A stretch of DNA of 64,000 bases from Heterodontus francisci. Its lineage: Eukaryota. Where the stretch lies: assembly GCF_036365525.1 (NCBI RefSeq), contig NC_090393.1, positions 20,693,195 through 20,757,194 of the forward strand, written 5' to 3'. Position 1 is the stretch's first letter. Every line of letters starts with the position of its first letter. Of the stretch, positions 461 to 56,718 are shown piece after piece. The translations under genes were made by a program, and so were the position numbers. The notes under the pieces are model-generated. The model had not been told where the DNA came from. It did not search any database and worked only from the letters and a program-made list of their open reading frames with translations.

Positions 461-913
461 TCAAATCTCCCTGCCACCACGGAGACGCAGGTTGATGTTG
501 ATGAGAGAATGGTGCTTAATTTCATAATATTCCAGTGTGTATCTGTCTTCTAGTGGCCTCGACTGAAAGGTCAGGTAGTACTGGTGTGACGAAATGTGCT
601 CCAGGGATTCAATTTTATTTTTCAGACTCAAAACTGTGTCAGTTGGCAACACTTCAATTTTATGCTTACGTCCCTCTGCATTCTTAACGGATATCTCGAT
701 GAATAAGTGGAGTGTTGCATCAAAGAATATTCCAGACTCCAGCAAGGATTTGTTGTCAATGAGCATGGTTTCATTAAACCTCAGGCGTTGCTTGTGAGCT
801 GGAATGTTCTGGTCTTGCTGGATTCGTTCCTTGATCATTGAGATCTTGTTGTCAATGTTGACATTCAGGCGAAATGACAAACCGCCCAGGCCGATGACAA
901 AACCCTTCACTGG
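461..913 (-). CDS. OASL: OASL-A exon 6: tandem ubiquitin-like domains, LRLRGG-REI
   Basis: Acceptor ttttgttctcgtcttag|CCA, phase 0 with exon 5; two UBL patterns; TGA at 461-463. Confidence 0.88.
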   Translation of the reverse strand, partial: PVKGFVIGLGGLSFRLNVNIDNKISMIKERIQQDQNIPAHKQRLRFNETMLIDNKSLLESGIFFDATLHLFIEISVKNAEGRKHKIEVLPTDTVLSLKNKIESLEHISSHQYYLTFQSRPLEDRYTLEYYEIKHHSLININLRLRGGREI

Positions 914-3900
914 CTAAGACGAGAACAAAACATGACATTAAAAATATCTTTTTTTATTTTGGGGGGGCAGCAAAAGACAGTCAGTGATGTTCTTTTTTCA
1001 TAAGTTTTTCAATAATTATATTTCCCTAATTTTCTTGCTGTCTCTCCTGATTGATTCTTGCTGGGGTGATAACCAGACTCCAGTACCTCACAGAAATGGC
1101 CACTGTTCTTGTATAAGCTTAGACAGTAAGTGTTGTTCACCATTCAACAAAGTCTGATCCTGTACTTAACTGATGATCACACATGTACAATATATGGTCA
1201 GTGGGAATCTCAGCTGCTTCTTTCCCCACCTCCCATGCAGGGGTGCTGAGGCCAATTGTAGCAGTCCCACAGTCACCCAGCTGACACCAGCTAATTCAAT
1301 ACGGACTGAGGATTGAAGCTGCGGAGTTTCTGACTTTCCATATGCCTTTAATACTTGACAGCTGGGCTATGATTACCAGCCCAAATGAAAAGAATGAAAT
1401 ATCCAATTAAGGATTGAGGTAAGTGATGAGAACAATGGCCTTTCACCTCAGTGATCTGAATTCCGATCTATTCTCGACAGAAGCAACTCTGGGATCTAAC
1501 AACACAATCTACGGAATTTCTACTATAGACATTGCCTTGTATCAAAACGTTATCATTTATTAAAACTGTTTTACCTGGACATCCCATTCTCGGACTCCAG
1601 AGACACATAGCATGTTCATGCATTTCACGGCCTCATTTACCATCACGTCCCATCCAGTAGATGAAGCAACATTTCCAGTTGGATCAGCTGGGTCAAGAAT
1701 AATTGGCCTGAAAAATAAAAAGGCCAGAGTTTGCTGGAAACTGATGGTGAGTTTAATGATACTCTCTGTTATTAGTGTGGAAATCATCCAGCAATTCTGT
1801 TGCAAGGAAGCGATACCCATGAGTTGCCCATTGCTATAAACTGCTGGTCGATTTGAGCTGCTCTGTCAATAGCTTCACTGTCAACCTCCTTGTGCAGTTC
1901 AAGAAATTGCTGCATTTGTGTATTATTTAGGAATTAACCTCATGCAGAAAGTCAGTGTTCCAACACAGCCACCTGCCTGCCCTGCCTCCAGACTGCACAA
2001 AACAAGGTGATGTTGGCTGTGTCAAGCTGGGGAATGTTGCCCAGAATCTCACTAAGGGGCCTACTCAGAAAAAAGTAAATTCTGCCTTCATTCCTCTTCT
2101 GCTCATCAGGAAACTGGCACACCATTTCTCACTCAGTTTATTGATCTTCCAACTGGGTCCCTTTGAGGCCAAGGATACATGAAATTACAGCCTAGAGAGT
2201 TCTTACCCTCAGCCTCAGCTTTGTCAGTGGCCTTGTGTGGGCCAGGAAGGGGCTCCAGTCCCTAATTCTGGAACCATTTAAGAACCAATAGACACTACAG
2301 AGAAGGGTCTTTCTGGATGGGTGATTTAAGATGGATCGTTCGGCCTTCCTGATCCGTAATTCTATTGTGATATTGTAAATTGCAGCAATTTGCATTTATA
2401 TAGCACTTTTAATTTCATAAACATTCCCAGACATTTCAGACAGAAGAAACAGATGCTGAGCAGGAATAGAATCCGAGGATCTGACCAAAGGTTTTCAGGA
2501 GGTTATTGAAAGTGGGAGAATTTGTAGTGAGGTGAAGAAATTTCTGGAGAGTTCCATAAAGTGGGACCAAAATGGCTGCAAGCTTTGCTACTGATGGCAA
2601 ATAAGAGGAGGTTCAGGGGGAATGAGCTGGAACAATGGCTGGAGGAGGTTGCAGATCAAGTGTAGGATGAAGAGATGAGTTGGTAATGAGATTTGTAAAT
2701 AAGGGTAAAGATTTTAAGACCTTAAAAATTAGTTGAGGAAGGAGCTACAGCAGAATATTTGGTGGGAGTTAAACACGGGCCGGAATTTTACATTGGGTGG
2801 GAGGCCCTGCCCACTGGCTGAAAAGTCGATGATGAGTGTGCCTCCGCTGGGCCTGGGAGCCAGGCTGGGATTTTACAATCCCCAGGTCCTAAACTGGTCT
2901 TGAGTGGGATTTCCACCTCCTTGAGGCAAGAAGTCCCACCTAATGGAGCTGCCGGCCAATCAGTGGGCCGGCAGCTCTTAGTCCCAACAGCACCACCAGG
3001 AGCAGTGGCCACTGCTGGGACTACACCCTGCCATTGGAGGCAAAAGGAAGGATGGCCCTGGAACTCAGGTTAAGTGTTTAGGACCTTGCCGGGGACAATT
3101 GCCTGGGCCCTGGCGAGGCACGTTAGTTGGGTGGAGGTGGAGGGAGGAGAGTGTTGTGCATTGGGGGTGGTTGGAGCTTCTGGGTAGCCCTCTGAGGGGC
3201 ATAGGGTGCCCAATTAGGAGAGCCCACCCCCAGCCTGCAAGAAGGCCACGTTGTTTAACCAGGCAGGGTTCTTGGGGCATTTGCCATCTGGCCACCTGGG
3301 GTAAAATATCCGTGGTGGCGGGAGGGGGCCCTTAAGTGGCAGTTAATTGGCCATGTAAGGGCCTTGATTGGCCTGGGGTGGGCTGGCCGTATCTCGCCTC
3401 TGCCGCCCTGTGTAAAATTGCCGTGGGGGCAACCCCCCCACCTCCCACTCAATTTTACACCCCCTCCACCGCACACCTCCCCCCCCACCCACCCCCCACC
3501 ACCAGCCTGCTCAATGTGGGGGCATAAAATTCCAGCCACAATCTTGCATTACAATGGAGCATTGTCAGGACTGCTGCCTCTTAGGCACATTTTCATACTT
3601 GAACTGTGTGTCAGGTTGACTCTCACTGCTAATATTGAGCTGCACATCCATCACATTCAAATAACGCAGCCAACATGTCACTTATTTGTCACCCATGATG
3701 CCAAAGTTAAGGACAAATATTAACGATCAAGTGAACTGGACCCCAAATATTTCTTGAATCGGCCCCGTTACTTGGGAGCTGTTCAAAGAAGTGAAGCAGC
3801 TCTAATTGGTATAGTTTTAAACAGGGTTGAAGATTTTACCTGTTGCCACTCAGTTTCTTTATTAGAAAGTCTGCAACGACTCTATTATTGACATCGTACT

Positions 3901-6900
3901 CCTTGGTCCAGTAGATGCACAGCTCCTGATATCTGCAGATCAGTTTCAGGACTGTTCGGAAACCATCAGCCATGACAAATCTTTCCTGTCCACTTCCTTG
4001 CTCCCAGGCATAAATAGTCAGCAGCTCCACTGCATACTTAGCAGGCAGGCGTGCTCCAGCTTTCAGCTCAAATTTCCGTGGCTTCACATACTAGGGTAAA
4101 TGGTTGACAAATATAAAGACAGAAATGTGATATTTCAAGTATTCACTCCTCCTCCCATCCTGTATTTTGGTTTCCATACTGTGATATTTTATTATTCTAA
4201 CCGGACCAAACAACTTCCCTGATAGTGCCAGCTGGGGCTATACCCAGCCCAATACTGCTGTATAAGCATTCGCTAAGAAGTCCACCACATCTGCCCAGAA
4301 TGGCCCTCATTCCAACTCTTTCTCGTTCCATTGGATGAACTGCCTAATCTCTGCACAAAGATAAGGCTGAGAAGACAAACTCTCCATGTGGAAACTGTAG
4401 ACATGAACCTATAGAATAGTGGGTTGGAGAGTCAGGAGTCAAAAGAAAGGAAGTTCTTGGAATTAGACTGAACTGAAATTGGGCCTCGGGCATTATCAGC
4501 AAATTGCTGGGAATCTGCGGATGCCAATCAGATACAAAACAGCAGCTCATAGGCTCCAGGAGACCAAAGTTGGGCCAGCTGCCTCTCCAGGAACGGCCAT
4601 CAGATAGTGAGAGGGTGGGGAGGTAGGTGATGGTGGGCCGGCAGCAGTCTTCAGGAATGCTGTGGAACTGGGAGAAGTTCTAGGAAGTGCCTCTTGGCTC
4701 CACATAAAGACAAGTATAAAAAATGTACTTACATTGAGGCCACTTGTCGACGCAAAAATCTGAAGGGGAACAGATCCGATGCGTACGTCACGTCCTTAAA
4801 GAGCCATTAGGCCCCTCATTAATATAGTCAAGGAGCCGAGCGCCTGTTTTGAACAGCTGCCCAGGATACTGTAAATTGTTTGAGGCCATTATAGCATTGG
4901 ACATATTTCAGGCACCTTTGGTGTTGATTTTTGTGCCTATTTCCACTGGAAAAATAGCACAAGTATCAATTTCTAACCCATTGTTTTTCAATTGATCCCT
5001 CAGTTATGAACTAACTTTTGTTTGATTCTCTTTTGCTGTGAATTCTAGAGTTACTTGGCAATGGAAGATTGGATGGAGCCTTTGGTTGTAAATTGAAGGA
5101 TACTGATGAAAAATGGAGAAGGTCACTCGAAGACACACTGTTCAGGGACTGGGTGAAAAGTAAAAGATTTCAGGGTAAAAACCCTGATCCTCACTCCAAA
5201 TGGGAAGCCATGGTCGAAGGATTGAGGCTCCATTTCTGACCATGTTTCTCAGTCCACAAAATATGGGATCAGGGCATTTGCTCTTTAATTGCTTTGAGAA
5301 TCAAGATCTGGTATAACATGTGTTCAACCTAAACCAGAAGATGTACAGGAGTTCTCCCCTTCTTCCAAATTATTTTCAACAGAGGAGAAGCAAGAATCTT
5401 TATTTATTCAAATACTGACACTGACTTTCTATGGGTTTGTCAACCTCCAGTTGTAATTTCAGTGGAGACTGGTGGAACTCCCAGAGAAACAGCACAAATG
5501 GACATTTCTCCAAAAGGTTTGGCTATCTCCCACCATGCAATCATTCCAGGTTTTCATCTGCAGTGTTTGTCAATGGAGTAGCTACTGGTGGAAGTCGAGA
5601 CACAGAAGGAAGCAATCTTTTTATTTTTGGTGCAACAATCCTCCCAAATCCTCCAAGCATTAAACAACTTCCATGTTCCCCAATCACTCACCTGTTTGTA
5701 CCAATATTTTAGCAGGCGAATCAAGTCTTTAAGTTTTGAAGGACGTTGCTTCACAAATTTTCTCTGAAGCTCAGTAAAACAGGCCGAAAATTCCCCATTT
5801 ACATCTTCATTTTCATTTACAAAATTGATCAGCTCGAGATGGGCTACACTTGCATTGTCCTGTCCCACTGCAAGATATTAAATGATTAATGAACATCTTC
5901 CTGCACTTGCAAGTGTATCAGAAGACAGGTACTCAACAAAAGCAATCCAATTAGATCATTACTCTAATAGACCATTTATATCTGCTTTTTAGTGGATGCT
6001 TCCTAATTTATTTAATCTCATGAAAGCTTCTCACATTCCCAAAGGTGCCCACAATTAGGTGTCTATAGATAGAGCCATAGAGTCATTTACGGCGTAGAAG
6101 AAGGCCATTCTCATCCCATCCCACAGTAAGAGGATTGATACTTGACCTGGTCCAAAGTATCTGCAGAGCAAGAAGGTCCCAGGTTTTAGTCCTTATCTCA
6201 GCCAGGGTAGCAGTGGATAACTACAAGTGATCTCAGTGTCCCTGGTTTGGGAAGTGATATAAAATATAGTCAAATATAGTAGTTTTTTGATACCTGATCA
6301 CTACCCAGTGACCCCTTCTGGAAAGTGTACTACGTGTGGCCATCAGATACCAACATAGGAATTCGGAGCAGGAGTTGGCCACTCGGCACTTTGAGCCTGC
6401 TCCGCCATTCAGTAAGTTCCTGGCTGAACTGACTACTCCATATTTCCACCTACTCCTGATAACCTTCCATCCCCTTGCTTATCAAGAATCTATCTTCCTC
6501 TGTCCTTAAAAATATTCAAAAACTCTGTTTCCCATTGCCTTTTAAGGAAGAGAATTCCAAAGACTCAGAACCCTCTGAGAGAAAAAAATCTCTCTTAAAT
6601 GGGCAACACATCTCTTTTCTCACCCTTTGCCCTCTCTAACAGAACACAAATACTGCCAGACATACTGAGTCTTTTCAGCATTTTCTGCTATTATTTCAGA
6701 TTTCCAGCATCCACGGTATTTTGCTTTTGTTTTGCTGTTGACACTCTTGTCTTGGTATGAGAAATGATCAGCTGGGAAAAGTACCAGGGCCTTTTGGTGG
6801 CCAAGAAACGGAATCACTTCCTTTAGAAAAGGAGGGAAAAGAGAACAAATCTCAGACATTAACTTAAAGAAACAATCCTGGGTCGATTTTCAGAGTTATT

Positions 6901-8977
6901 ATCTGAGACTTCCCATCATCATCATTGTGTTAACGCCAATGTTAAAATGATGCCAATCATAAACTGGGGCTAATATGCCTCATGACTTCTCCTGTTAAGG
7001 GTCCGCAATATATCTGTGATAGTCTATTGTATCTGATCCTATCAGAAAAGCGAATTGAAACATATTCCTCCCAACAACAACTCTAATAATAAATGGAACT
7101 CAGCTCTGCATCATCTGAACTAGGAACAGAACATGTGATGGAGCAAAGTGGATAACGTGCACTTTATTCCCGTCTTTCTTGATGAGTAGCAGAGGCTCAT
7201 TGAAGAATTTAAATTAAACTGGAGCTTTAATGATATAAATTGTTATAAATTCTTACTTAATGCATCAAAGGTTGGCAAAACATCAAAATTCACACTGCCT
7301 GAATTCTTCTTTGATTTCAGTGTGAAGCTCATGGATTTTGGCGGGATGCCGCTGTTCTGTGTTATAGTGATATTGATATCACTGATCTCATACGCAATGC
7401 TTGATTTACATATTTCCAGTATTTGCTGAATTTCCTCAAGAATTTCATGCCTGGTTTCCCTCTGGTCCTGGAAATTCTTGAAACAACTGAGGAAGACGAC
7501 CAGATCCGCATCTGAGCCCTCTCTTAAAGCTGTTCCTTTCCCTGATGATCCTCCCTGAGGAGAGGAGGAAGAATAAAACATTATTTATGTATTATTTATA
7601 TTTCAGATACTGGTGAACTTACCCATTCCTTAAATATTGCATAAAGATAACGCCATTTGTTTTCTTCAGTCTTGAACAATCAGGCTCTCTGTATCATTGC
7701 TTTGAGCTCGGAATTCACACTGATACAATGTTTGCTGCCACTTTCCTTTTGATCTTTTCCCTCTTGCCCTCTTTTCATGAAGCTGCTGACTTGCTGAGAC
7801 AGTTTCACGAGCACTCATCAGCAATTCCCCGAATTATCTATTCTTCATATGTGGTCTTTGGCCACAGGTGTCAACAGGCTATTCAACTATGCCGAGAATC
7901 GCAACTCAATTTTGTCCTGTACATATAAAGTAGACTTTCAGCAAAGGTGACTGGAAAGTGAGCAGGATTGGAGACCCTGGGCTGATAGTCCTTCTTACCG
8001 AGTGCGTTGTGGTCAATTTTAACACCTACACCTGTCATCAACAGAGTGGTTTTGCCCTATTTGAGGATTTGGGGGTGTGGGGGGGGGGGCTTGCTATAAT
8101 TCCTGTCTTTCCCATCTTAACCACTGACAGAGCCAGTGCTAAGTCAGAATCTACTAAATAACTTTCTGTTTAAGCATGAGAATAAAATCATAAGATGCAA
8201 ACCACGTCTTTCTCTCTTTCTCTCTGTCTGAATTGGAAACTCACATTATTGTATCCCTTTAGAATTAAAATTGTTTTAAAAGTGTGTTGTCACTTTAAGA
8301 ATTCGAACTCTTGTTGATTTTGAGGAGCATATTTAAAGCATGTTGTACTTTTGACAGCGGTACATCTCAATGAAGTTCTTTAAGAGGAACAGATTTGAAG
8401 TAAATGTTCCCTTTAACAGAAGTCCATCGAAAGGCACAGAACCTTTAAAACAAGCAGGTCAAAAACATTCTGTCCCTTCGGGTAAAAAATCCCCATTTGG
8501 TCCAGATTTTCCGAGAAACATTCGACATCTACACAGAATTCCCAGGAAATGATGGCGATCTCACCCAATCCCGTTAATTTAGATGAGATACTGGAGGCAA
8601 CTGGCACTGGTGGAACTGAATCCCACAGCGAGACCACAACATTTGGAGAAATGGAGTTTAGCGCAGAAAACAGGAAATTTAATGTTTCAAAATGAGCAAT
8701 CACGAGAAAACATCTCCATACTTAAGCAAGGCAAGGTACCTGATATTGAAAATAGTAATTTATTGTAAACACTAGTAATTCCATAATCTCCATGAAAATA
8801 ACTTACTTTAACAGCTCTGATCACTTTGATCGTGGGTTGTTTGATAAAACATCGATTCCTTAAAAAATCGCAGATTCTGTGCACTGCGTTCCTCACTTTG
8901 ATGTTAAATTCATTTGGTTCCAGGTTATTTTTAATGAAATCGTCCAGATTCCTGGGTTCAGTTTCGTATAACCCCAT
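461..8977 (-). CDS. OASL: OASL-like gene copy A: OAS domain + two UBL domains, 493 aa; join complement(8807-8977, 7257-7554, 5692-5867, 3840-4090, 1575-1707, 461-913)
   Basis: Six exons with GT-AG junctions stay in frame (intron phases 0,1,0,2,0; 1482 nt). Kozak accATGG at 8977. OAS motifs: [69 protein letters not shown]. Last exon encodes two UBLs ending [10 protein letters not shown]. Confidence 0.93.
1575..1707 (-). CDS. OASL: OASL-A exon 5
   Basis: Acceptor ttttcag|; [13 protein letters not shown]...WDVQ; donor CAG|GTAAAA. Confidence 0.92.
2778..3537. mobile_element. GC-rich non-autonomous TIR element (Harbinger-like MITE) in OASL intron 4; copy at 31739-32513
   Basis: Termini GGCCGGAATTTTA ... 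TAAAATTCCAGCC. Confidence 0.6.
3840..4090 (-). CDS. OASL: OASL-A exon 4
   Basis: Acceptor ccctag|; [14 protein letters not shown]...GFRTVL...LCIYWT; donor AG|GTAAAA. Confidence 0.92.
5692..5867 (-). CDS. OASL: OASL-A exon 3
   Basis: Acceptor ttgcag|; [11 protein letters not shown]...[11 protein letters not shown]; donor CAG|GTGAGT. Confidence 0.92.
7257..7554 (-). CDS. OASL: OASL-A exon 2 (nucleotidyltransferase core)
   Basis: Acceptor cctcag|; [16 protein letters not shown]; donor A|GTAAGA. Confidence 0.92.
8807..8977 (-). CDS. OASL: OASL-A exon 1 ([16 protein letters not shown]...KVIRAVK)
   Basis: OAS N-terminal LDxFI motif; donor AAA|GTAAGT. Confidence 0.9.
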
Positions 8978-9020: not shown

Positions 9021-9236
9021 CCTTATAAACCAGTTGCCGCGCCTTCTTTAAATATTCCAAAAATAGACGCAATTATTAAGACTTTCCAACTAACATATGA
9101 CATGCTGTCCATCAATGATTTGGATCTCCACCCAGTACAAAGTTTATATTTGCCGCTGATTCCACATCAACCGAAAATCCGTTTCAATTTCCTCAGAAAT
9201 TTCGCTCTGTTGAATTAGCTTTCAGTTTCATTTCCC
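9021..9236 (-). promoter_or_regulatory. OASL-A promoter: TATA-like box and two ISRE clusters
   Basis: Minus strand TTTATAA (about 9023-9029), GGAAATTGAAAC (9181-9192) and GGGAAATGAAACTGAAAGCT (9217-9236) matching GAAANNGAAA. Confidence 0.75.
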
Positions 9237-10129
9237 CAGTTAGCAGAGCAGTCCGTAAATTTCAACACCTTACAGGCACTGATCACGAGTTAATAAAAAG
9301 AAAGGCTTCCGTTCACGACCACAAGATGTCCCAAAGCCTTTACAGCCAATGAAGCATATTTGCAGTGCAGTCACTATTTTAATGTAGGAAAGTAATGGAA
9401 AATATAACCGTAGCTTCCTTCCTTCCAACATCTCAAGTATGTAATCGGTGCCGATTTTACAGCACAGTCTGACAGGGGAAACGACCAAGAAAATACATCT
9501 CTGAAATTCACTTTTAATCCCAAAGGGAATTTGTTAGAAATAATCCAACTCTAAAGTTGGAATCCCTGCCACAGTGCTGCTGACATGCCTGCCTTCAGAG
9601 GAGAACTGCAGCCACAGTATTGGATTCTTGGGATCTAAATGTTCATCTGTGGCCCCTTTAGTTTTCTATTTTGATCCCTATTCCTCTCTCTTTCTTCAAG
9701 GTGTTGATTCATATTATGCTACCACCAGTCCCCAGTTCCTCACTGAGGTTTGATGTTACAGTCAGAGGCATCAAAGCTGAGCCCTGCCTGATCTCAGTCA
9801 ACAGCTCAGCTTCTGCCATTTCTGCCACTCGCGAAGTGATATCAGCACCAAACAGATCTTCCCCTCCTCTGCCCTGCCCTCCCAGCACTCCAAAAGGATT
9901 GTTCCCTCTGTTACATTCAGGTTCACTTTTCCATCATCTTTACACCTTTCTGCCTTGCCTTAGTACCTTTGCATGTAAGTACAGAAGATGCAACACCTTC
10001 CCTTTCACCTCTTCCCACACCACTGTTCACATCCTTAAATGCTCCTTCTGTCTGAGCCTCAGCACTACATTAGTTTTCATATGTACAGCGAAAACACCTA
10101 GCTCGACTTCACCACCACCTCTCTCGACT

Positions 10130-10920
10130 CCTCCACTGTTATTAAATTATCAGGCTGCTTATCTGACATCCATTACTGGATGAGCAGAAATGTTTTCCAA
10201 TTAAATATTGGGAAGACTGAAGCCATTATTTTTAGTCCATGCTCCAGACTCCATTCCTTAGCTCCCGACTCCATGCCTCTCCCTGGCAACAGTCTGAGAT
10301 TAAACCAGTCTGTTCGCAATCTTGGTGTCGCATTTGATCCTGAGATGAGATTCTGACCTCATATTCACGCCATCACAAAGGCCGCCTCTTTTCACCTCCA
10401 TAACATCATTTGACTTCGCCCCTGTCGCAGCTCATCGGCTGCTGAAACCCTCATTCATGGCTTCGTTACCTGTAGACTTGACTATTCCAATGCACTCCTG
10501 ACTGATCTCCTACATTCTACCCTCCATAAACTGGAGGTCATCCAAAACTCTGCTGTTCATGTCTTAACTCACACCAAGTTCTGTTCCTCTATCACCCCTG
10601 TGCTCGCTGACTTACATTGGCTCCTGGTCAAGTAACATCTTGATTTTAAAATTCTCATCCTTGTTTTCAAATCCCTCCATGCCTCGACACTCCCTATTTC
10701 TGTCATCTCCTCCAGCCCCACAACCCTCCAAGATATCTGCACTCCTCTGATTCTGGCCTCTTGAGCATCCCTGATTATAATCACTCGGCCATTGGTGGCT
10801 GTATCTTCAGTTACCTAGGGCCTAAGCTCTGGAATAGCCTCCCCAAATCTCTCTGCCTCCCCACCTCGCATTCCTCCTTTGAGACACTCCTTAAAACCTA
10901 TCCCTTTGATGAAGCTTTTG
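10130..10920 (+). mobile_element. L2-type LINE 3' fragment
   Basis: Degenerate LNIGKTEAI, RNLGV.FD, AETLIH.FVT.RLDYSNALL motifs. Confidence 0.7.
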
Positions 10921-11600
10921 CTTCTTCTTCTTTGGCCTCCTTGTCTCGAGAGACAATGGGTAAGCGCCTAAAGGTGGTCAATGGTTTGTGAAGCAGCGCT
11001 TGGAGTGGCTATAAAGGACAATTCTAGAGTGACAGACTCTTCCACAGGCGTTGCAGATAAAATTGGTTGTCGGAGCTGTTACACAGTTGGCTCTCTCCTT
11101 GCACTTCTGTCTCTTCTCCTGCCAACTGCTAAGTCTCTTCGACTCGCCACTCTTTAGCCCCACCTTTATGGCTGCCCGCCAGCTCTGGCGATCACTGGCA
11201 ACTGACTCCCACGACTTGTGGTCAATGTCACAGGACTTCATTTCACGTTGGCAGACATCTTTAAAGCGGAGACATGGATGGCCGGTGGGTCTGATACCAG
11301 TGATTAGCTCACTGTACAATGCGTCCTTGGGGGTCCTGCCATCTTCCATGTGGCTCACATGACCAAGCCATCTCAAGCGCCGCTGGCTCAGGAAGGTGTA
11401 TATGCTGGGGATGTTGGCCACCTCGAGGACTTCAGCATTGGAGATACTATCCTGCTACCTGATGCCAAGGATTCTCCAGAGGCAGCAAAGATGGAATGAG
11501 TTGAGACATCGCTCTTGGCTGACATACGTTGTCCAGGCCTTGCTGCCGTAGAGCAAGGTACTGAGGACACAGGCTTGAAACACTCGGTTGTGTTAATGGG
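10921..11600 (-). mobile_element. RTE-clade LINE 3' fragment
   Basis: ORF 10978-11421 RRLRWLGHV..M...R.PK..LYSEL, CxxC zinc motif, (GAA)n tail. Confidence 0.8.
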
Positions 11601-12549
11601 ACAAATATTACAGATCCCCCCGTGGTCGAGGGTTGTGGTGAGGGGGCCGGAAAATGCCTCCATGAGAGGTCCGCCTGGGCCTTGATGCCGGGAAGGTTCG
11701 GCCTGATATTGCTGGCAGCGGCGAGGCCTCGTGGCAGCCCCGCTTTCCTCCCCCACACCACCCCCCCACCAGCCACTCGACGACAGGGGCCACATCTGAA
11801 TATGTTAATTAATTTAAATTAACAAATAAATTACCGACCTGCTCCCGACGTCTGCTCTGGAGCGATATTGCTGCATGTGGCTGGCACTCCCGTGCCCTCG
11901 GGTCCCCATCCGGGGATCCAAGGAGGAACACTGCTGGGGAGGGGGCAGCAGGTAAGGTTTACAGTGCAGGGTTGGGGAGTAAGTGGTATCAGATTCATGT
12001 CATTGGTCTAGGGGTGGTGGGAAGGTCTAATGTTTAAAGTTTATGAACTTTGGGGGGAAGGTCAAGAGCACGAGGTAAGTGCTTTGAGGGGGGAGAGGGC
12101 AAGTAATGAATTTTATGGTCGTTGCGGGGGATGGGAGAGGGTCAGGATTACTTTCTTTAATTTTTTAATTCATTTTTCTTTAAATATTTAAATTGCTCTG
12201 CGGGGCTCGAAGCCCTTTAAAATGGCATCAGCACCTACGGAAAGTCTGCTGACACCATTGCCGGGTATGGACCGCCCACCTCCTCCACATCATAGGATAA
12301 TAATATCGCGGTGGCTCCGTTACGTGCAGGCCGCACAGGCAGACCACCACAGTTCATGGCAGCGGACATGTAAAATGTAGCCCAATATCTTCTTATGTGG
12401 CTTGGTGTCATGTTTTGTTTAAATGCTCCTGTGAATCTCCTTGGGACATTTTATTATATTAGAGGTGCTCTATAAATAAAGGTTGTTGTTGTTGAAACAT
12501 CAATTTACATGTTCTTCCTCCAAGCTAATACAAAGTATTTGCTGCTCAC

Positions 12550-13430: not shown

Positions 13431-13640
13431 GAAAGGAACCTGAAAGTGAGAGAGATGGGAGCCCAGTACCTGTTACCTGGAGCCAGGTTCTCTCTCTGCT
13501 GCTGACTGCAATGTCATTTCCCGGACACAGAGGGGAGTTTTGGGGAAATGAAAGTTGTTTGTTATAATAGAGCCGGAGATGTCAGGCAATCAGAGTACAG
13601 CAGGGCTGTGACGTTCAGAAAGTGGGTCTGACAATAAAAG
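13431..13640 (+). promoter_or_regulatory. ISG15-A promoter: IRF-E/ISRE-like sites, CRE half-site, TATA-like
   Basis: GAAAGGAACCTGAAAGTGA (13431), GAAATGAAAGT (13545-13555), TGACGT (13609), AATAAAA (13633); the same layout is conserved in the third paralog. Confidence 0.6.
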
Positions 13641-13664
13641 GAGAGGAGGGAGCCAGAGACACAG

Positions 13665-14869: not shown

Positions 14870-15337
14870 ATGAGACTCCAGGTGAAGTTTATGACCGGTG
14901 AGATTATCGAACTTGTGATCGACCCTTCCATCCAAGTGTCGGCTCTCAAGATGTTGATATTTGAAAAGAGCAAGGTGCCCTATTTCCAACAGCGTCTGAT
15001 GGTGCAAAACGGGAGCAGTGTGGAGCTGAAGGATGACAAGAGGCTGTCCGACTACAATGTCTCTCCCAGCGACGCTGTCCTGCTGCTTGTCAAGAATGAG
15101 CAGTGCATGCAGATATTCCTGCAGAATGACAAGGGGAAAACATCTACATACGACGTTCTTCCCTCTGAGTCAGTTCAGGCTTTTAGAGCACGAGTACAAC
15201 GGCAGGAGGGTGTCCCAGCCAACCAGCAGCGCCTGATGTATGAGGGGAAACAGCTGGAAGATGGTCGATTGCTCTCTGACTACAATATTCAGCCTCAGGG
15301 CACCATCTTTCTCCTGCTACGTCTACGGGGGGGTTAA
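14870..15337 (+). CDS. ISG15: ISG15-like di-ubiquitin protein copy A, 155 aa, ends LRLRGG*
   Basis: Two UBL domains; FQQRL in N-lobe, [16 protein letters not shown] in C-lobe (fish ISG15-like); aagATG just after the splice acceptor. Confidence 0.9.
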
Positions 15338-29424: not shown

Positions 29425-29877
29425 TCAGATCCCCCTGCCACCACGGAGACGCAGGTTGATGTTGATGGTACAATGATGCTTAATTTTGTAATATTCCAGT
29501 GTGTATCTGTCATCTAGCTTCATCGTCTGAAAGGTCAGGTAGTACTGGTGTGACGGAATGCGCTCCAGGGATTCAATTTTATTTTTCAGACTCAAAACTG
29601 TGTCAGTTGGCAACACATTAATTGTCAGGTTACGTCCCTCTGCATTCTTAACGAATATCTCCATGAATAAGTGGAGTGTTGCATCAAAGAATATTCCAGA
29701 CTCCAGCAAGGATTTGTTGTCAATGAGCATGGTTTCATTAAACCTCAGGCGTTGCTTGTGAGCTGGAATGTTCTGGTCTTGCTGGATTCGTTCCTTGATC
29801 ATTGAGATCTTGTTGTCAATGTTGACATTCAGGCGAAATGAGAAACCGTCCAGGCCGATGACAAAACCCTTCACTGG
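29425..29877 (-). CDS. OASL: OASL-B exon 6: tandem UBLs, LRLRGG-RGI
   Basis: Acceptor cttag|CCA; 18 substitutions versus A. Confidence 0.88.
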   Translation of the reverse strand, partial: PVKGFVIGLDGFSFRLNVNIDNKISMIKERIQQDQNIPAHKQRLRFNETMLIDNKSLLESGIFFDATLHLFMEIFVKNAEGRNLTINVLPTDTVLSLKNKIESLERIPSHQYYLTFQTMKLDDRYTLEYYKIKHHCTININLRLRGGRGI

Positions 29878-32800
29878 CTAAGACGAGAACAAAACAGAAG
29901 ATAGAAATTTTTTTGTGGGGTGGGGGGGGGCAGCAAAAGGCAGTCAGTGATGTTCTTTTTTCATAAGTTTTTCAATAATTATATTTCCCTAATTTTCTTG
30001 CTGTCTCTCCTGATTGATTCTTGCTGGGGTGATAACCAGACTCCAGTACCTCACAGAAATGGCCACTGTTCTTGTATAAGCTCAGACAGTAAGTGTTGTT
30101 CACCATTCAACAAAGTCTGATCCTGTACTTAACTGATGATCACACACGTACAATATATGGTCAGTGGGAATCTCAGCTGCTTCTTTCCCCACCTCCCATG
30201 CAGGGGTGCTGAGGCCAATTGTAGCAGTCCCACGGTCACCCAGCTGACACCAGCTAATTCAATACGGACTGAGGATTGAAGCTGCGGAGTTTCTGACTTT
30301 CCATATGCCTTTAATACTTGACAGCTGGGCTATGATTACCAGCCCAAATGAAAAGAATGAAATATCCAATTAAGGATTGAGGTAAGTGATGAGAACAATG
30401 GCCTTTCACCTCAGTGATCTGAATTCCGATCTATTCTCGACAGAAGCAACTCTGGGATCTAACAACACAATCTACGGAATTTCTACTATAGACATTGCCT
30501 TGTATCAAAACGTTATCATTTATTAAAACTGTTTTACCTGGACATCCCATTCTCGGACTCCAGAGACACATAGCATGTTCAAGCATTTCATGGCCTCATT
30601 TACCATCACGTCCCATCCAGTAGATGAAGCAACATTTCCAGTTGGATCAGCTGGGTCAAGAATAATTGGCCTGAAAAATAAAAAGGCCAGAGTTTGCTGG
30701 AAACTGATGGTGAGTTTAATGATACTCTCTGTTATTAGTGTGGAAATCATCCAGCAATTCTGTTGCAAGGAAGCGATACCCATGAGTTGCCCATTGCTAG
30801 AAACTGCTGGTCGATTTGAGCTGCTCTGTCAATAGCTTCACTGTCAACCTCCCTGTGCAGTTCAAGAAATTGCTGCATTTGTGTATTATTTAGGAATTAA
30901 CCTCATGCAGAAAGTCAGTGTTCCAACACAGCCACCTGCCTGCCCTGCCTCCAGACTGCACAAAACAAGGTGATGTTGGCTGTGTCAAGCTGGGGAATGT
31001 TGCCCAGAATCTCACTAAGGGGCCTACTCAGAAAAAAATAAATTCTGCCTTCATTCCTCTTCTGCTCATCAGAAAACTGGCACACCATTTCTCACTCAGT
31101 ATATTGATCTTCCAACTGGGTCCCTTTGAGGCCAAGGATACATGAAATTACAGCCTAGAGAGTTCTTACCCTCAGCCTCAGCTTTGTCAGTGGCCTTGTG
31201 TGGGCCAGGAAGGGGCTCCAGTCCCTAATTCTGGAACCATTTAAGAACCAATAGACACGACAGAGAAGGGTCTTTCTGGATGGGTGATTTAAGATGGATC
31301 GTACGGCCTTCCTGATCCGTAATTCTATTGTGATATTGTAAATTGCAGCAATTTGCATTTATATAGCACTTTTAATTTCATAAACATTCCCAGACATTTC
31401 AGACAGAAGAAACAGATGCTGAGCAGGAATAGAATCCGAGGATCTGACCAAAGGTTTTCAGGAGGTTATTGAAAGTGGGAGAATTAGTAGAGGTGAAGAA
31501 ATTTCTGGAGAGTTCCATAAAGTGGGACCAAAATGGCTGCAAGCTTTGCTACTGATGGCAAATAAGAGGAGGTTCAGGGGGAATGAGCTGGAACAATGGC
31601 TGGAGGAGGTTGCAGATCAAGTGTAGGATGAAGAGATGAGTTGGTAATGAGATTTGTAAATAAGGGTAAAGATTTTAAGACCTTAAAAATTAGTTGAGGA
31701 AGGAACTACAGCAGAATATTTGGTGGGAGTTAAACACGGGCCGGAATTTTACATTGGGTGGGAGGCCCTGCCCACTGGCTGAAAAGTCGATGATGAGTGT
31801 GCCTCCGCTGGGCCTGGGAGCCAGGCTGGGATTTTACAATCCCCAGGTCCTAAACTGGTCTTGAGTGGGATTTCCACCTCCTTGAGGCAAGAAGTCCCAC
31901 CTAATGGAGCTGCCGGCCAATCAGTGGGCCGGCAGCTCTTAGTCCCAACAGCACCACCAGGAGCACTGCTGGGACTACACCCTGCCATTGGAGGCAAAAG
32001 GAAGGATGGTCCTGGAACTCAGGTTAAGTGTTTAGGACCTCGCCGGGGACAATTGGCCGGGCCCTGGCGAGGCAAGTTAGTTGGGTGGGGGTGGGGGGAG
32101 GAGAGTGTTGTGCGTTGGGGGTGGTTGGAGCTTCTGGGTAGCCCTCTGAGGGGCATAGGGTGCCCAATTAGGAGAGCCCACCCCCAGCCTGCAAGAAGGC
32201 CACGTTGTTTAACCAGGCAGGGTTCTTGGGGCATTTGCCATCTGGCCACCCGGGGTAAAATATCCGTGGTGGCGGGAGGAGGCCCTTAAGTGGCAGTTAA
32301 TTGGCCATGTAAGGGCCTTGATTGGCCTGGGGTGGGCTGGCCGTTTCTCGCCTCTGCCGCCCTGTGTAAAATTGCCGTGGGGGCGGAACGGGGTCAGGAA
32401 TAGTAACCCCCCACCTCCCACTCAATTTTACACCCCCTCCACTGCACACCTCCCCCCCCCCGCCCCACCCACCACCACCAGCCTGCTCAATGTGGGGGCA
32501 TAAAATTCCAGCCACAATCTTGCATTACAATGTAGCATTGTCAGGACTGCTGCCTCTTAGGCACATTTTCATACTTGAACTGTGTGTCAGGTTGACTCTC
32601 ACTGCTAATATTGAGCTGCACATCCATCACATTCAAATAGCGCAGCCAACATGTCACTTATTTGTCACCCATGATGCCAAAGTTAAGGACAAATATTAAC
32701 CATCAAGTGAACTGGACCCCAAATATTTCTTGAATCGGCCCCGTTACTTGGGAGCTGTTCAAAGAAGTGAAGCAGCTCTAATTGGTATAGTTTCAAACAT

Positions 32801-35800
32801 GGTTGAAGATTTTACCTGTTGCCACTCAGTTTCTTTATTAGAAAGTCTGCAACGACTCTATTATTGACATCGTACTCCTTGGTCCAGTAGATGCACAGCT
32901 CCTGATATCTGCAGATCAGTTTCAGGACTGTTCGGAAACCATCAGCCATGACAAATCTTTCCTGTCCACTTCCTTGCTCCCAGGCATAAATAGTCAGCAG
33001 CTCCACTGCATACTTAGCAGGCAGGCGTGCTCCAGCTTTCAGCTCAGATTTCCGTGGCTTCACATACTAGGGTAAATGGTTGACAAATATAAAGACAGAA
33101 ATGTGATATTTCAAATATTCACTCCTCCACCCATCCTGTATTTTTGTTTCCATGCTGTTATCTTTTATTATTCTAACCGGACCAAACAACTTCCCTGATA
33201 GTACCAGCCGGGGATATACCCAGCCCAATACTGCTGTATAAGCATTCGCTAAGAAGTCCACCACATCTGCCCAGAATGGCCCTCATTCCAACTCTTTCTC
33301 GTTCCATTGGATGAACTGCCTAATCTCTGCACAAAGATAAGGCTGAGAAGACAAACTCTCCATGTGGAAACTGTAGACATGAACCTATAGAATAGTGGGT
33401 TGGAGAGTCAGGAGTCAAAAGAAAGGAAGTTCTTGGAATTAGACTGAACTGAAATTGGGCCTCGGGCATTATCAGCAAATTGCTGGGAATCTGCGGATGC
33501 CAATCAGATATAAAACAGCAGCTCATAGGCTCCAGGAGACCAAAGTTGGGCCAGCTGCCTCTCCAGGAACGGCCATCAGATAGTGAGAGGGTGGGAGGTA
33601 GGTGATGGTGGGCCGGCAGCAGTCTTCAGGAATGCTGTGGAACTGGGAGAAGTTCTAGGAAGTGCCTCTTGGCTCCACATAAAGACAAGTATAAAAAATG
33701 TACTTACATTGAGGCCACTTGTCGACGCAAAAATCTGAAGGGGAACAGATCCGATGCGTACGTCACGTCCTTAAAGAGCCATTAGGCCCCTCATTAATAT
33801 AGTCAAGGAGCCGAGCGCCTGTTTTGAACAGCTGCCCAGGATACTGTAAATTGTTTGAGGCCATTATAGCATTGGACATATTTCAGGCACCTTTGGTGTT
33901 GATTTTTGTGCGTATTTCCACTGGAAAAATAGCACAAGTATCAATTTCTAACTCATTGTTTTTCAATTGATCCCTCAGTTATGAACTAACTTTTGTTTGA
34001 TTCTCTTTTGCTGTGAATTCTAGAGTTACTTGGCAATGGAAGATTGGATGGAGCCTTTGGTTGTAAATTGAAGGATACTGATGAAAAATGGAGAAGGTCA
34101 CTCTAAGACACACTGTTCAGGGACTGGGTGAAAAGTAAAAGATTTCAGGGTAAAAACCCTGATCCTCACTCCAAATGGGAAGCCATGGTCGAAGGATTGA
34201 GGCTCCATTTCTGACCTGTTTCTCAGTCCACAAAATATGGGATCAGGGCATTTGCTCTTTAATTGCTTTGAGAATCAAGATCTGGTCTAACATGTGTTCA
34301 ACCTAAACCATAAGATGTACAGGAGTTCTCCCCTTCTTCCAAATTATTTTCAACAGAGGAGAAGCAAGAATCTTTAATTATTCCAAATACTGACACTGAC
34401 TTTCTATGGGTTTGTCAACCTCCAGTTGTAATTTCAGTGGAGACTGGTGGAACTCCCAGAGAAACAGCACAAATGGACATTTCTCCAAAAGGTTTGGCTA
34501 TCTCCCACCATGCAATCATTCCAGGTTTTCATCTGTAGTGTTTGTCAATGGAGTAGCTACTGGTGGAAGTCGAGACACAGAAGGAAGCAATCTTTTTATT
34601 TTTGGTGTAACAATCCTCCCAAATCCTCCAAGCATTAAACAACTTCCATGTTCCCCAATCACTCACCTGTTTGTACCAATATTTTAGCAGGCGAATCAAG
34701 TCTTTAAGTTTTGAAGGACGTTGCTTCACAAATTTTCTCTGAAGCTCAGTAAAACAGGCCGAAAATTCCCCATTTACATCTTCATTTTCATTTACAAAAT
34801 TGATCAGCTCGAGATGGGCTACACTTGCATTGTCCTGTCCCACTGCAAGATATTAAATGATTAATGAACATCTTCCTGCACTTGCAAGTGTATCAGAAGA
34901 CAGGTACTCAACAAAAGCAATCCAATTAGATCATTACTCTAATAGACCATTTATATCTGCTTTTTAGTGGATGCTTCCTAATTTATTTAATCTCATGAAA
35001 GCTTCTCACATTCCCAAAGGTGCCCACAATTAGGTGTCTATAGGTAGAGCCATAGAGTCATTTACGGCGTAGAAGAAGGCCATTCACATCCCATCCCACA
35101 GTAAGAGGATTGATACTTGACCTGGTCCAAAGTATCTGCAGAGCAAGAAGGTCCCAGGTTTTAGTCCTTATCTCAGCCAGGGTAGCAGTGGATAACTACA
35201 AGTGATCTCAGTGTCCCTGGTTTGGGAAGTGATATAAAATATAGTCAAATATAGTAGTTTTTTGATACCTGATCACTACCCAGTGACCCCTTCTGGAAAG
35301 TGTACTACGTGTGGCCTTCAGATACCAACATAGGAATTCGGAGCAGGAGTTGGCCACTCGGCACTTTGAGCCTGCTCTGCCATTCAGTAAGTTCCTGGCT
35401 GAACTGACTACTCCACATTTCCACCTACTCCTGATAACCTTCCATCCCCTTGCTTATCAAGAATCTATCTTCCTCTGTCCTTAAAAATATTCAAAAACTG
35501 TTTCCATTGCCTTTTAAGGAAGAGAATTCCAAAGACTCAGGACCCTAGAACATAGAACATAGAACATTACAGCGCAGTACAGGCCCTTCAGCCCTCGATG
35601 TTGCCGACCTGTGAAACCATCTGACCTACACTATTCCATTTTCATCCATATGTCTATCCTCTGAGAGAAAAAAATCTCTCTTAAATGGGCAACACATCTC
35701 TTTTCTCACCCTTTGCCCTCTCTAACAGAACACAAATACTGCCAGACATACTGAGTCTTTTCAGCATTTTCTGCTATTATTTCAGATTTCCAGCATCCAC

Positions 35801-38230
35801 GGTATTTTGCTTTTGTTTTGCTGTTGACACTCTTGTCTTGGTATGAGAAATGATCAGCTGGGAAAAGTACCAGGGCTTTTTGGTGGATAAGAAACTGAAT
35901 CACTTCCTTTAGAAAAGGAGGGAATAGAACGATTCTCAGACATTAACTTAACGAAACAATCCTGGGTCGATTTTCAGAGTTATTATCTGAGACTTCCCAT
36001 CATCATCATTGTGTTAACGCCAATGTTAAAATGATGCCAATCATAAACTGGGGCTAATATGCCTCATGACTTCTCCTGTTAAGGGTCCGCAATATATCTG
36101 TGATAGTCTATTGTATCTGATCCTATCAGAAAAGCGAATTGAAACATATTCCTCCCAACAACAACTCTAATAATAAATGGAACTCAGCTCTGCATCATCT
36201 GAACTAGGAACAGAACATGTGATGGAGCAAAGTGGATAACGTGCACTTTATTCCCGTCTTTCTTGATGAGTAGCAGAGGTTCATTGAAGAATTTAAATTA
36301 AACTGGAGCTTTAATGATATAAATTGTTATAAATTCTTACTTAATGCATCAAAGGTTGGCAAAACATCAAAATTCACACTGCCTGAATTCTTCTTTGATT
36401 TCAGTGTGAAGCTCATGGATTTTGGCGGGATGCCGCTGTTCTGTGTTATAGTGATATTGATATCACTGATCTCATACGCAATGCTTGATTTACATATTTC
36501 CAGTATTTGCTGAATTTCCTCAAGAATTTCATGCCTGGTTTCCCTCTGGTCCTGGAAACTCTTGAAACAACTGAGGAAGACGACCAGATCCGCATCTGAG
36601 CCCTCTCTTAAAGCTGTTCCTTTCCCTGATGATCCTCCCTGAGGAGAGGAGGAAGAATAAAGCATTATTTATGTATTATTTATATTTCAGATACTGGTGA
36701 ACTTACCCATTCCTTAAATATTGCATAAAGATAACGCCATTTGTTTTCTTCAGTCTTGAACAATCAGGCTCTCTGTATCATTGCTTTGAGCTCGGAATTC
36801 ACACTGATACAATGTTTGCTGCCACTTTCCTTTTGATCTTTTCCCTCTTGCCCTCTTTTCATGAAGCTGCTGACTTGCTGAGACAGTTTCACGAGCTCTC
36901 ATCAGCAATTCCCCGAATTATCTATTCTTCATATGTGGTCTTTGGCCACAGGTGTCAACAGGCTATTCAACTATGCCGAGAATCGCAACTCAATTTTGTC
37001 CTGTACATATAAAGTAGACTTTCAGCAAAGGTGACTGGAAAGTGAGCAGGATTGGGGACCCTGGGCTGATAGTCCTTCTTACCGAGTGTGTTGTGGTCAA
37101 TTTTAACACCTACACCTGTCATCAACAGAGTGGTTTTGCCCTATTTGAGGATTTGGGGAGGGGGGGGGGGGGTGCGGGAGGGCTTGGTTTAATTCCTTGC
37201 CTTTCCCATCTTAACCACTGACAGAGCCAGTGCTAAGTCAGAATCTGCTAAATAACTTTCTGTTTAAGCATGAGAATAAAATCATAAGATGCAAACCACG
37301 TCTTTCTCTCTTTCTCTCTCTCTGACATTTTACAAAGTGAACAGCTTTTAATAGGGGTGAAGCCACTAACTAACATTTCGCTCAGGTCTGTTCTCGCCTC
37401 CTTTCCTTGTACAAGAGTAAATGTGACATATTCACGATGTTGTTTCTTCACTGCAGCTGACTGGAGACGGGGTGAATGGAGACTGAATTGGAAACTCACA
37501 TTACTGTATCCCTTTAGAATTAAAATTGTTTTAAAAGTGTGTTGTCACTTTAAGAATTCGAACTCTTGTTGATTTTGAGGAGCATATTTAAAGCATGTTG
37601 TACTTTTGACAGCGGTACATCTCAATGAAGTTCTTTAAGAGGAACAGATTTGAAGTAAATGTTCCCTTTAACTGAAGTACATCGAAAGGCACAGAACCTT
37701 TAAAACAAGCAGGTCAAAAACATTCTGTCCCTTCGGGTAAAAAATCCCCATTTGGTCCAGATTTTCCTGGAAACATGTGACATTCGACATCTACACAGAA
37801 TTCCCAAGAAATGATGGCGATCCCGTTAATTTAGATGAGATACTGGAGGCAACTGGCACTGGTGGAACTGAATCCCACAGCGAGACCACAACATCTGGAG
37901 AAAAGGGAGTTTAGCGCAGAAAACAGGAAATTTAATGTTTCAAAATGAGCAATCACGAGAAAACATCTCCATACTTAAGCAAGGCAAGGTACCTGATATT
38001 GAAAATAGTAATTTATTGTAAACACTAGTAATTCCATAATCTCCATGAAAATAACTTACTTTAACAGCTCTGATCACTTTGATCGTGGGTTGTTTGATAA
38101 AACATCGATTCCTTAAAAAATCGCAGATTCTGTGCACTGCGTTCCTCACTTTGATGTTAAATTCATTTGGTTCCAGGTTATTTTTAATGAAATCGTCCAG
38201 ATTCCTGGGTTCAGTTTCGTATAACCCCAT
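29425..38230 (-). CDS. OASL: OASL-like gene copy B, 493 aa; join complement(38060-38230, 36341-36638, 34667-34842, 32816-33066, 30538-30670, 29425-29877)
   Basis: Same exon sizes and splice sites as copy A; catalytic motifs intact; ends [10 protein letters not shown]. Confidence 0.93.
30538..30670 (-). CDS. OASL: OASL-B exon 5
   Basis: [13 protein letters not shown]; two substitutions versus A. Confidence 0.92.
32816..33066 (-). CDS. OASL: OASL-B exon 4
   Basis: One substitution (F>S) versus A. Confidence 0.92.
34667..34842 (-). CDS. OASL: OASL-B exon 3
   Basis: Same peptide and splice sites as A. Confidence 0.92.
35547..35657 (-). mobile_element. Short CR1-type 3' end inserted only in OASL-B intron 2
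   Basis: (AGAACAT)3 tail, flanked by CCT duplication; empty site at about 6571 in unit A. Confidence 0.65.
36341..36638 (-). CDS. OASL: OASL-B exon 2
   Basis: [16 protein letters not shown]; one substitution (N>S) versus A. Confidence 0.92.
38060..38230 (-). CDS. OASL: OASL-B exon 1
   Basis: Same peptide as copy A; accATGG; donor GTAAGT. Confidence 0.9.
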
Positions 38231-43604: not shown

Positions 43605-44072
43605 ATGAGACTCCAGGTGAAGTTTATGACCGGTGAGATTATCGAACTTGTGATCGACCCTTCCATCCAAGTGTCGGCTCTCAAGATGTTGATATTTGAA
43701 AAGAGCAAGGTGCCCTATTTCCAACAGCGTCTGATGGTGCAAAACGGGAGCAGTGTGGAGCTGAAGGATGACAAGAGGCTGTCCGACTACAATGTCTCTC
43801 CCAGCGACGCTGTCCTGCTGCTTGTCAAGAATGAGCAGTGCATGCAGATATTCCTGCAGAACGACAAGGGGAAAACATCTACATACGACGTTCTTCCCTC
43901 TGAGTCAGTTCAGGCTTTTAGAGCACGAGTACAACGGCAGGAGGGTGTCCCAGCCAACCAGCAGCGCCTGATGTATGAGGGGAAACAGCTGGAAGATGGT
44001 CGGTTGCTCTCTGACTACAATATTCAGCCTCAGGGCACCATCTTTCTCCTGCTACGTCTACGGGGGGGTTAA
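43605..44072 (+). CDS. ISG15: ISG15-like copy B, 155 aa, protein identical to copy A
   Basis: Only two synonymous differences from 14870-15337 were seen. Confidence 0.9.
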
Positions 44073-56244: not shown

Positions 56245-56718
56245 ATGAGACTCCAGGTGAAGTTTATGACCGGTGAGATTATCGAACTTGTGATCAACCC
56301 TTCCATCCAAGTGTCGGCTCTCAAGATGCTGATATTTGAAAAGAGCAAGGTGCCCTATTACCAACAGCGTCTGATGGTGCAAAACGGAAACAGTGTGGAG
56401 CTGAAGGATGACAAGAGGCTGTCCGATTACAATGTCTCTCCCAGAGACGTTATCCTGCTGCTTGTCAAGAATGAGCAGTGCATGCAGATATTCCTGAAGA
56501 ATGACAAGGGGAAAATATCTACATATGACGTTCTTTCCACTGAGTCAGTTCAGGCTTTCAGAGCACGAGTACAGCAGCAGGAGGGTGTCCCAGCCAACCA
56601 GCAGCGCCTGATGTATGAGGGGAAACAGCTGGAAGATGGTCGGTTGCTCTCTGACTACAATATTCAGCCTCAGGGCACCATCTTTCTCCTGCTACGTCTA
56701 CGGGGAGGTTTTTTGTGA
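56245..56718 (+). CDS. ISG15: ISG15-like copy C, 157 aa, ends LRLRGG-FL*
   Basis: 11 aa substitutions versus A/B plus a two-residue extension; acceptor tcaacag| at 56232. Confidence 0.9.

Follow-up and report, generated by a model that had tools for sequence, protein, structure and literature searches.

A shark OASL gene with an intact predicted active site, two ubiquitin-like domains and an LRLRGG end, adjoining ISG15

The case for conjugation of OASL, a 2′,5′-oligoadenylate (2-5A) synthetase family member carrying ubiquitin-like domains (UBLs), rests on a single paper on the chicken protein (PMC8764230), which describes an active enzyme made with residues after its LRLRGG motif, forming conjugates mostly with itself upon overexpression, and losing its pro-tail to 7 of 14 nairoviral ovarian tumour-type (OTU) proteases and 3 of 6 papain-like proteases (PLpros). 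That report frames OASL conjugation around birds, which are without ISG15. The union of an OAS enzyme with a UBL has been described as the ancestral architecture across jawed vertebrates, including cartilaginous fish (PMC10400998), while the human OASL enzyme is inactive, as an initial annotation of the present locus had noted and as both of these sources state. Here we analyze an OASL gene of the shark Heterodontus francisci, designated copy A, located on the minus strand of a 64,000-nucleotide stretch of contig NC_090393.1 (positions 20,693,195 to 20,757,194, hereafter the window), together with its neighbors. The initial annotation, aware only that avian OASL is reported to keep LRLRGG, had put forward a conjugatable active OASL as a novel idea, which it is not given this chicken precedent of 2022 (active, with a pro-tail, forming conjugates and cut by viral OTUs and PLpros; PMC8764230).

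The shark gene shares with avian OASL an OAS domain carrying the catalytic triad (active in birds), a tandem UBL, the LRLRGG motif and a short pro-tail (PMC8764230, PDB 7SBI, PMC6019448), and its OAS domain falls in the same clade as that of finch OASL. However, whereas birds are without ISG15, three such genes lie next to OASL in the shark genome; the second UBL (UBL2) bears Y42 and N70 where finch has R42 and L70 (ubiquitin numbering, counting back from the diglycine); and the shark has two recent copies with different UBL2 sequences and a shorter linker between the UBLs. The same NTase-OAS1_C-UBL architecture defines the OASa.U class, although the passages of PMC10400998 on that class hold no discussion of a diglycine end, ISG15 or CaaX. 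Like ISG15, shark OASL encodes its tandem UBL in a single exon and has both LRLRGG and a precursor tail, and copy A has Y, T, P and N at the positions of W123, T125, P130 and N151 (PMC10693564, PMC10409785). Unlike ISG15, it carries a 343-residue enzyme, its UBLs are only 27-30% identical to those of ISG15, its position 68 is N rather than the F of human ISG15, and copy B has K49. Human and therian OASL have the same domain order and belong to the same clade, but the therian sequences sampled (marsupial and bat) are without the diglycine end and the human enzyme is inactive (PMC8764230, PMC10400998). A more distant parallel drawn by the initial annotation, with the bacterial CBASS CD-NTases, holds insofar as a second-messenger nucleotidyltransferase is ligated through its C-terminal glycine, as proposed for OASL; it is nonetheless an analogy with no shared machinery, as CBASS uses a dedicated E1/E2 fusion (Cap2), with no UBL domain named, and conjugation there raises cGAMP output (PMC10097602). 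With two UBLs and a vertebrate locus, shark OASL does not fit CBASS type II.

Copy A comprises six exons with 1,482 coding nucleotides and 493 residues, and all its introns are GT-AG with matching phases. The features of copy A, and the outline of copy B, are as follows.

461..8977, minus strand: OASL copy A, whole gene, ATG at 8977 and stop TGA at 463-461
8807..8977, minus strand: exon 1, coding part, residues 1-57 (transcript contigs reach ~9251)
7257..7554, minus strand: exon 2, with GGSSGKGT, D72 (7512-7510), D74 (7506-7504) and D148 (7284-7282); PF01909
5692..5867, minus strand: exon 3, start of OAS1_C with a basic RNA/NTP-binding stretch; PF10421, aligns with OAS1
3840..4090, minus strand: exon 4, OAS1_C; PF10421 and contigs
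1575..1707, minus strand: exon 5, end of OAS1_C, phase-0 donor; PF10421 and contigs
461..913, minus strand: exon 6, both UBLs and the tail; PF00240 twice
701..913, minus strand: UBL1 within exon 6, residues 344-414; Pfam and predicted model
473..700, minus strand: UBL2 within exon 6, residues 415-490 (76 residues), ending in LRLRGG (490-473); from translation
461..472, minus strand: tail REI and stop TGA; from translation, tail pLDDT below 50
29425..38230, minus strand: OASL copy B, 493 residues, tail RGI, K49, exons 38230-38060, 36638-36341, 34842-34667, 33066-32816, 30670-30538 and 29877-29425

The active-site residues listed by the initial annotation are all in place. The P-loop GGSSGKGT occupies residues 58-65, and the three catalytic aspartates (D72, D74 and D148, the last within FDVLP) align with those of human and pig OAS1, for which the human triad D75-D77-D148 has been named (PMC6019448); the basic stretch of exon 3 aligns with OAS1 as well. 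Domain searches returned NTP_transf_2 (PF01909) in exon 2, OAS1_C (PF10421) across exons 3-5 and PF00240 twice in exon 6, and the best protein database match to copy A is 100% identical. Translation also bears out the predicted protein end, with LRLRGG at residues 485-490 followed by REI (RGI in copy B), at exactly the coordinates given. The description of that end as a 76-residue UBL is correct for the last UBL but incomplete, as exon 6 encodes two according to both Pfam and the structural model. In this AlphaFold model, built from 16 sequences and with a mean pLDDT of 84.6 (residues 148-150 fall below 50), the two beta-grasps are joined by a single unbroken strand. A Foldseek search with it recovered di-ubiquitin, ISG15 and chicken OASL 7SBI at a TM-score of ~0.5, and 7SBI is also a sequence match at 63 bits. 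The linker itself (701-715) is without ~6 residues present in ISG15 and ~4 present in other shark OASL, in both copies. Based on these features, the gene encodes a predicted active 2-5A synthetase with an intact active site, two UBLs, and LRLRGG followed by a three-residue tail.

The joining of exon 6 to the OAS exons was evaluated using contigs from four of the seven sequencing runs listed, which were guessed rather than labelled as RNA; such contigs drop rare variants. One 1,748-nucleotide contig of run X3 carries exons 1, 2, 4, 5 and 6 in succession with a 176-nucleotide gap the size of exon 3, and a contig of run X5, from a second study and a second organism, joins exons 6, 5, 4 and 2. A single contig of run X2 spans 913 to 266 without interruption and so includes the stop codon (in copy B, the corresponding one). 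The letters at 31 of the 31 listed differing places within 310-698 are those of copy B (runs X1-X3 where covered), and six-exon splicing is therefore shown for copy B. The exon 5-6 splicing expected by the initial annotation is thus observed in contigs of two studies, for copy B and in the second organism, while a mature transcript of copy A itself is only hinted at. This leaves a real if lesser chance that copy A is a weakly expressed or decaying duplicate and copy B the working gene: besides the 31 copy-B letters, a 3-kb insert lies upstream of copy A, run X1 is without A letters at 464, 468 and 597-698, and there is no AATAAA or ATTAAA within 400 nucleotides of the copy A stop, against three for copy B. 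On the other side, copy A has an open frame, intact splice sites and an element resembling an interferon-stimulated response element (ISRE), and A letters account for about one third of the depth in run X1 at 504-558, and for some of it at 310-313, in contigs that would drop rare variants.

The same contigs bear on the database model P0001, a 1,974-residue protein fusing copy B, copy A and a downstream OAS gene, from which one could imagine a polyprotein cut at LRLRGG in the manner of polyubiquitin. Models with such fusions do occur in several sharks and rays (P0001-P0009 and P0021-P0023). In P0001, however, the linker reads the antisense of ISG15a plus repeats, and the exit from exon 6 is placed inside the stop codon, at a point that offers no GT donor; hence we consider this model an artefact. 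Moreover, linkers vary between species, contigs pass the stop into the 3′ untranslated region, and exon 1 contigs extend 5′ to ~9251 with no upstream splice, so that the polyprotein is largely refuted and highly improbable. As a side observation, the P0001-P0009 and P0021-P0023 models present neighboring genes as single “OAS2/OAS3-like” proteins, and counts of multi-unit OAS in sharks and rays may be inflated by such fusions.

We next consider how widely the LRLRGG end is kept. Across the P0001-P0023 set, which covers 15 named shark and ray genera and 31 UBL2 units above 80 bits, 26 of the 31 units end in exactly LRLRGG and 28 in RGG, and in each of the 11 stand-alone models the diglycine is followed by a tail of 3-15 residues, variable in sequence. 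R74 and G75 occur without exception (30 of 30 units) and G76 in 28 of 30, while positions 48, 53 and 68 take 7, 7 and 12 different residues, respectively. Among bony vertebrates, where the sample is thin (one representative per 50% cluster among the best 150 of 23,978 matches, 20 of them named), LRLRGG is found in coelacanth (tail SIPY), finch (tail VGPQLP), skink (tail LNLF), lungfish, caecilian and tortoise, and one axolotl model ends in RLRGG; no tail follows the diglycine in lungfish, tortoise and one axolotl model. The expectation of the initial annotation that the motif would be kept in related species is borne out by this sampling (28/31 RGG, 11/11 tails, plus bony vertebrates). In a tree of OAS domains, the shark genes group with tetrapod OASL (SH-aLRT 98), apart from OAS1-3, in an OASL clade of 35 units including finch, marsupial, bat and coelacanth; this was a quick run on 56 OAS units, with SH-aLRT support and no bootstrap. 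Taken together, this suggests that a conjugatable-type LRLRGG end dates back to the ancestor of jawed vertebrates and is not peculiar to birds, and, from the taxa sampled, we infer that it was lost in therian mammals. The origin of such an end would hence move to the jawed-vertebrate root, and the retention of RGG with a variable tail across taxa provides independent evolutionary support for diglycine use.

The LRLRGG end coexists with ISG15 in the shark. A six-frame scan of the window found five LRLRGG motifs, two at minus-strand OAS gene ends and three at the ends of plus-strand ISG15-like frames.

14870..15337, plus strand: ISG15a, 155 residues, ending LRLRGG-stop; non-coding exon 1 at ~13470-13861, intron 13862-14857
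43605..44072, plus strand: ISG15b, protein same as ISG15a; from translation
56245..56718, plus strand: ISG15c, 93% identical, LRLRGG with tail FL; from translation

The initial annotation was right to regard these as genuine ISG15 genes: all three are stand-alone two-UBL genes that match human ISG15 (88 bits for the full-length match of shark ISG15), and shark ISG15 groups with the ISG15 parts of squamate models at 98/95 support. ISG15a and ISG15b end at the diglycine with no pro-tail, and ISG15c has FL. A species with both ISG15 and a conjugatable OASL would make the E1/E2 choice for a 56-kDa enzyme testable, as well as the effect of attachment on 2-5A output, for comparison with cGAMP output in CBASS.

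From these observations, we propose that a host protease likely removes the tail of shark OASL and that the entire enzyme is then likely attached to lysines, either those of other proteins or its own. Expression would be induced by interferon, as predicted from an ISRE-like element laid out as in the adjoining ISG15 genes, and would yield the six-exon mRNA shown for copy B; we infer all steps after this splicing. Double-stranded RNA (dsRNA) would trigger 2-5A synthesis and RNase L activation, as the conserved residues, a chimaera OASa and RNase L pair that acts together in yeast (PMC10400998), and an RNase L-like exon in this genome (G000:C8:115518234-115518365; sole PDB matches RNase L, E 0.0016) would suggest. 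REI or RGI would then be removed by a deubiquitinase (DUB)-type protease, by analogy with chicken, an E1 would activate the exposed diglycine, and conjugation may hold the sensor on targets or concatenate it, self-conjugation being dominant in chicken.

Several points weigh against this proposal. The chicken study is overexpression-based, and its main text names no diglycine mutant and no E1 (PMC8764230). Avian UBLs also serve dsRNA binding, which offers a non-covalent reason for their conservation (PMC6019448). Among the shark and ray units, three of the 31 end in GA, GA and VA, all at internal junctions of fused models, and the other axolotl copy ends in LREG, with the diglycine lost. A diglycine remnant, furthermore, does not separate OASL from ubiquitin. 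The C-terminus may thus be kept for non-covalent recognition, be it ubiquitin or ISG15 mimicry toward RIG-I or a DUB, a decoy for viral proteases, or RNA binding, with the enzyme never ligated. Such a role would fit human OASL, which acts on RIG-I without the motif (PMC6019448), and the absence of a diglycine control from the main text on chicken, and we regard it as rather unlikely: the near-invariant R74, G75 and G76 followed by a freely varying tail form the pattern of a processed precursor, a 120-kDa species positive for both FLAG and HA was seen in chicken (PMC8764230), and mammals retained the RIG-I role yet lost the motif.

The trimmed end could serve another purpose. A C-terminal diglycine can act as a degron, and the exposed glycines might mainly be a turnover signal limiting a dangerous enzyme, with little conjugation. 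The presence of a tail in 11 of 11 stand-alone shark and ray models, while ISG15a and ISG15b end directly at the diglycine, would suit such a signal. However, the full LRLR and an E1-type surface are conserved beyond what a degron needs, and the lungfish, tortoise and one axolotl proteins are tail-less, which makes turnover an improbable main function compared to ligation of the trimmed protein.

Which E1 would charge shark OASL was considered from human structures, where ISG15 W123, T125, P130, F149 and N151 (ubiquitin R42, I44, Q49, H68 and V70) select UBA7 and exclude UBA1 (PMC10693564, PMC10409785). At positions 42, 44, 49, 68 and 70, copy A reads Y/T/P/N/N and copy B Y/T/K/N/N, and across sharks and rays Y42 is found in 30 of 30 units, T44 in 29, N70 in 28 and P49 in 19. 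With Y, T and N at positions 42, 44 and 70, an ISG15-type E1 would be a likelier partner than UBA1. Yet the shark ISG15 genes themselves have R42/M44/Q49/F68/L70 rather than the human ISG15 pattern and resemble ubiquitin at this patch (R42, Q49), and R42 is likewise found in the OASL of finch, tortoise, coelacanth and lungfish, none of which has the Y/T/N patch, so that the human rule may not carry over to shark. Of three E1-type loci in the genome (C4, C19 and C44), two were compared, and their pieces match UBA1 best (37 and 80 bits) with UBA7 lower (18 and 31-34 bits); neither could be assigned as a UBA7 orthologue, which also counts toward non-covalent recognition. Copies A (P49) and B (K49) would form a natural pair with which to probe E1 and protease specificity.

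These two copies lie in a duplicated block of ~29 kb at 97-98.6% identity, each unit consisting of OASL (minus strand) head-to-head with ISG15 (plus strand). Between them, 15 of the 76 UBL2 residues differ (positions 1, 4, 12-14, 16, 35, 37, 47-49, 51, 60, 65 and 66) compared with 4 of the 343 OAS-domain residues (P 5e-9); among nucleotides, 22 of 228 differ in UBL2 and 102 of 7,008 in introns (P 3e-11). The initial annotation had taken the retention of LRLRGG in both copies despite this heavy change as evidence for the motif, which does not hold: the copies are ~98% identical, and the chance that six given UBL2 residues escape change is P = 0.25. Divergence is also raised in the 3′ flank (11/195; UBL2 vs flank P 0.15); UBL2 and the flank (266-700 vs 29230-29664) diverge 4-7 times as much as introns. 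Positive selection on UBL2 between the copies was rejected because pN (0.104) and pS (0.069) do not differ significantly (dN/dS ~1.5, P 0.43), the flank is raised too, and a UBL2-only excess of this kind is absent in 10 other pairs (8 within-model or genus-level paralogue pairs and 2 further). A conversion-tract boundary accounts for the divergence equally well, while protease-driven selection is possible. Run X5, from the second organism, shows both the A and B letter types at 653-665, and the two UBL2 types may therefore predate the species split.

The surroundings of the two OASL genes contain the following additional features.

9246..12290, no strand: repeat-rich insert unique to the interval between OASL copy A and ISG15a, from the A/B comparison
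9218..9235, minus strand: tandem element resembling an ISRE, at the OASL copy A 5′ end
38471-38487: counterpart of this element in OASL copy B
G000:C23:20671731-20662438, located 21-31 kb ahead of the window: third OAS gene, CaaX-type, with an intact triad, one UBL and the end WCILM-stop
G000:C23:20797638-20827823, starting 40 kb past the window end: P2X receptor gene

Once copy-specific inserts are removed, the 5′ ends of OASL and ISG15 lie ~1.2 kb apart head-to-head, and ISRE-like elements are found near the 5′ ends of all five window genes (two OASL and three ISG15). The enrichment is weak: a looser pattern gave 12 matches in the window against a mean of 3.9 and a maximum of 10 in mononucleotide shuffles, with overlapping matches counted, and a strict pattern gave 0 matches in the window.

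Fused gene models from three squamates (P0074, P0183 and P0185) show ISG15 next to OAS and P2X genes, and in a white shark model ISG15 lies antisense between OASL units (E 7.6e-9). These models match the OAS-ISG15-P2X order seen here in DNA, a linkage common to sharks and squamates. The acceptor of the ISG15 coding exon is in frame and of phase 0, compatible with the phase-0 donor at OAS exon 5, a fit expected in one of three cases by chance. The coelacanth OASL tail (P0033 / P0170) shares 52% identity with shark ISG15, as against 31% with shark OASL. Because of the linkage, the phase-0 fit and this ISG15-like tail, capture of an exon by OAS from the adjoining ISG15 is plausible. The coelacanth tail groups with ISG15 at 98/95, yet monophyly of OASL tails was not rejected (p-AU 0.073, axolotl row dropped) and the model itself may be a fusion, so that its assignment to ISG15 was not retained. 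Recent recapture, slow evolution or a fused model of neighbors may each underlie this tail.

Ends resembling the UBL-CaaX of the third OAS gene are also found in 11 shark and ray models, caecilians, coelacanth and worm lizard, and the OAS proteins of gecko, rhino and opossum end in CTIL. This distribution suggests that prenylation of OAS long predates human OAS1 p46, or that it arose more than once. Orthology of the CaaX gene with mammalian OAS1 was considered and is not supported, as it groups with the shark LRLRGG genes (SH-aLRT 80) inside the OASL clade. Tentatively, these strands can be joined into one account, which as a whole may well not hold: OASL would have been born when OAS captured the coding exon of a neighboring ISG15; the ancestral jawed vertebrate would have possessed a pair of conjugatable modifiers induced by interferon, an enzyme among them; sharks would keep two ways of placing the sensor side by side, covalent attachment in the case of the LRLRGG genes and prenylation in that of the UBL-CaaX gene; and shark OASL, not ISG15, would bear the human-ISG15-type E1 patch.

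In the literature covered, with subscription journals mostly outside its scope, we found no account of a conjugatable OASL outside birds, of OAS-ISG15 linkage or of a fish CaaX OAS, and the parts of PMC6307210 and PMC13185871 concerned add nothing on fish OASL. No earlier account was found within that scope of the ancestral motif coexisting with ISG15, the shark Y42/T44/N70 patch, the OAS-ISG15-P2RX linkage shared with squamates, or the UBL-CaaX neighbor. Within intron 5 of the CaaX gene lies an inverted partial copy of the end of its own last exon (216 nucleotides, 89%; window-relative -30400 to -29950), and a 7-kb tandem repeat is located 10-17 kb before the window. Finally, copy-specific inserts and retroelement-like open frames were noted at 9246-12290, 38799-41419, 50946-52483, 26307-26876 and 23451-24047.

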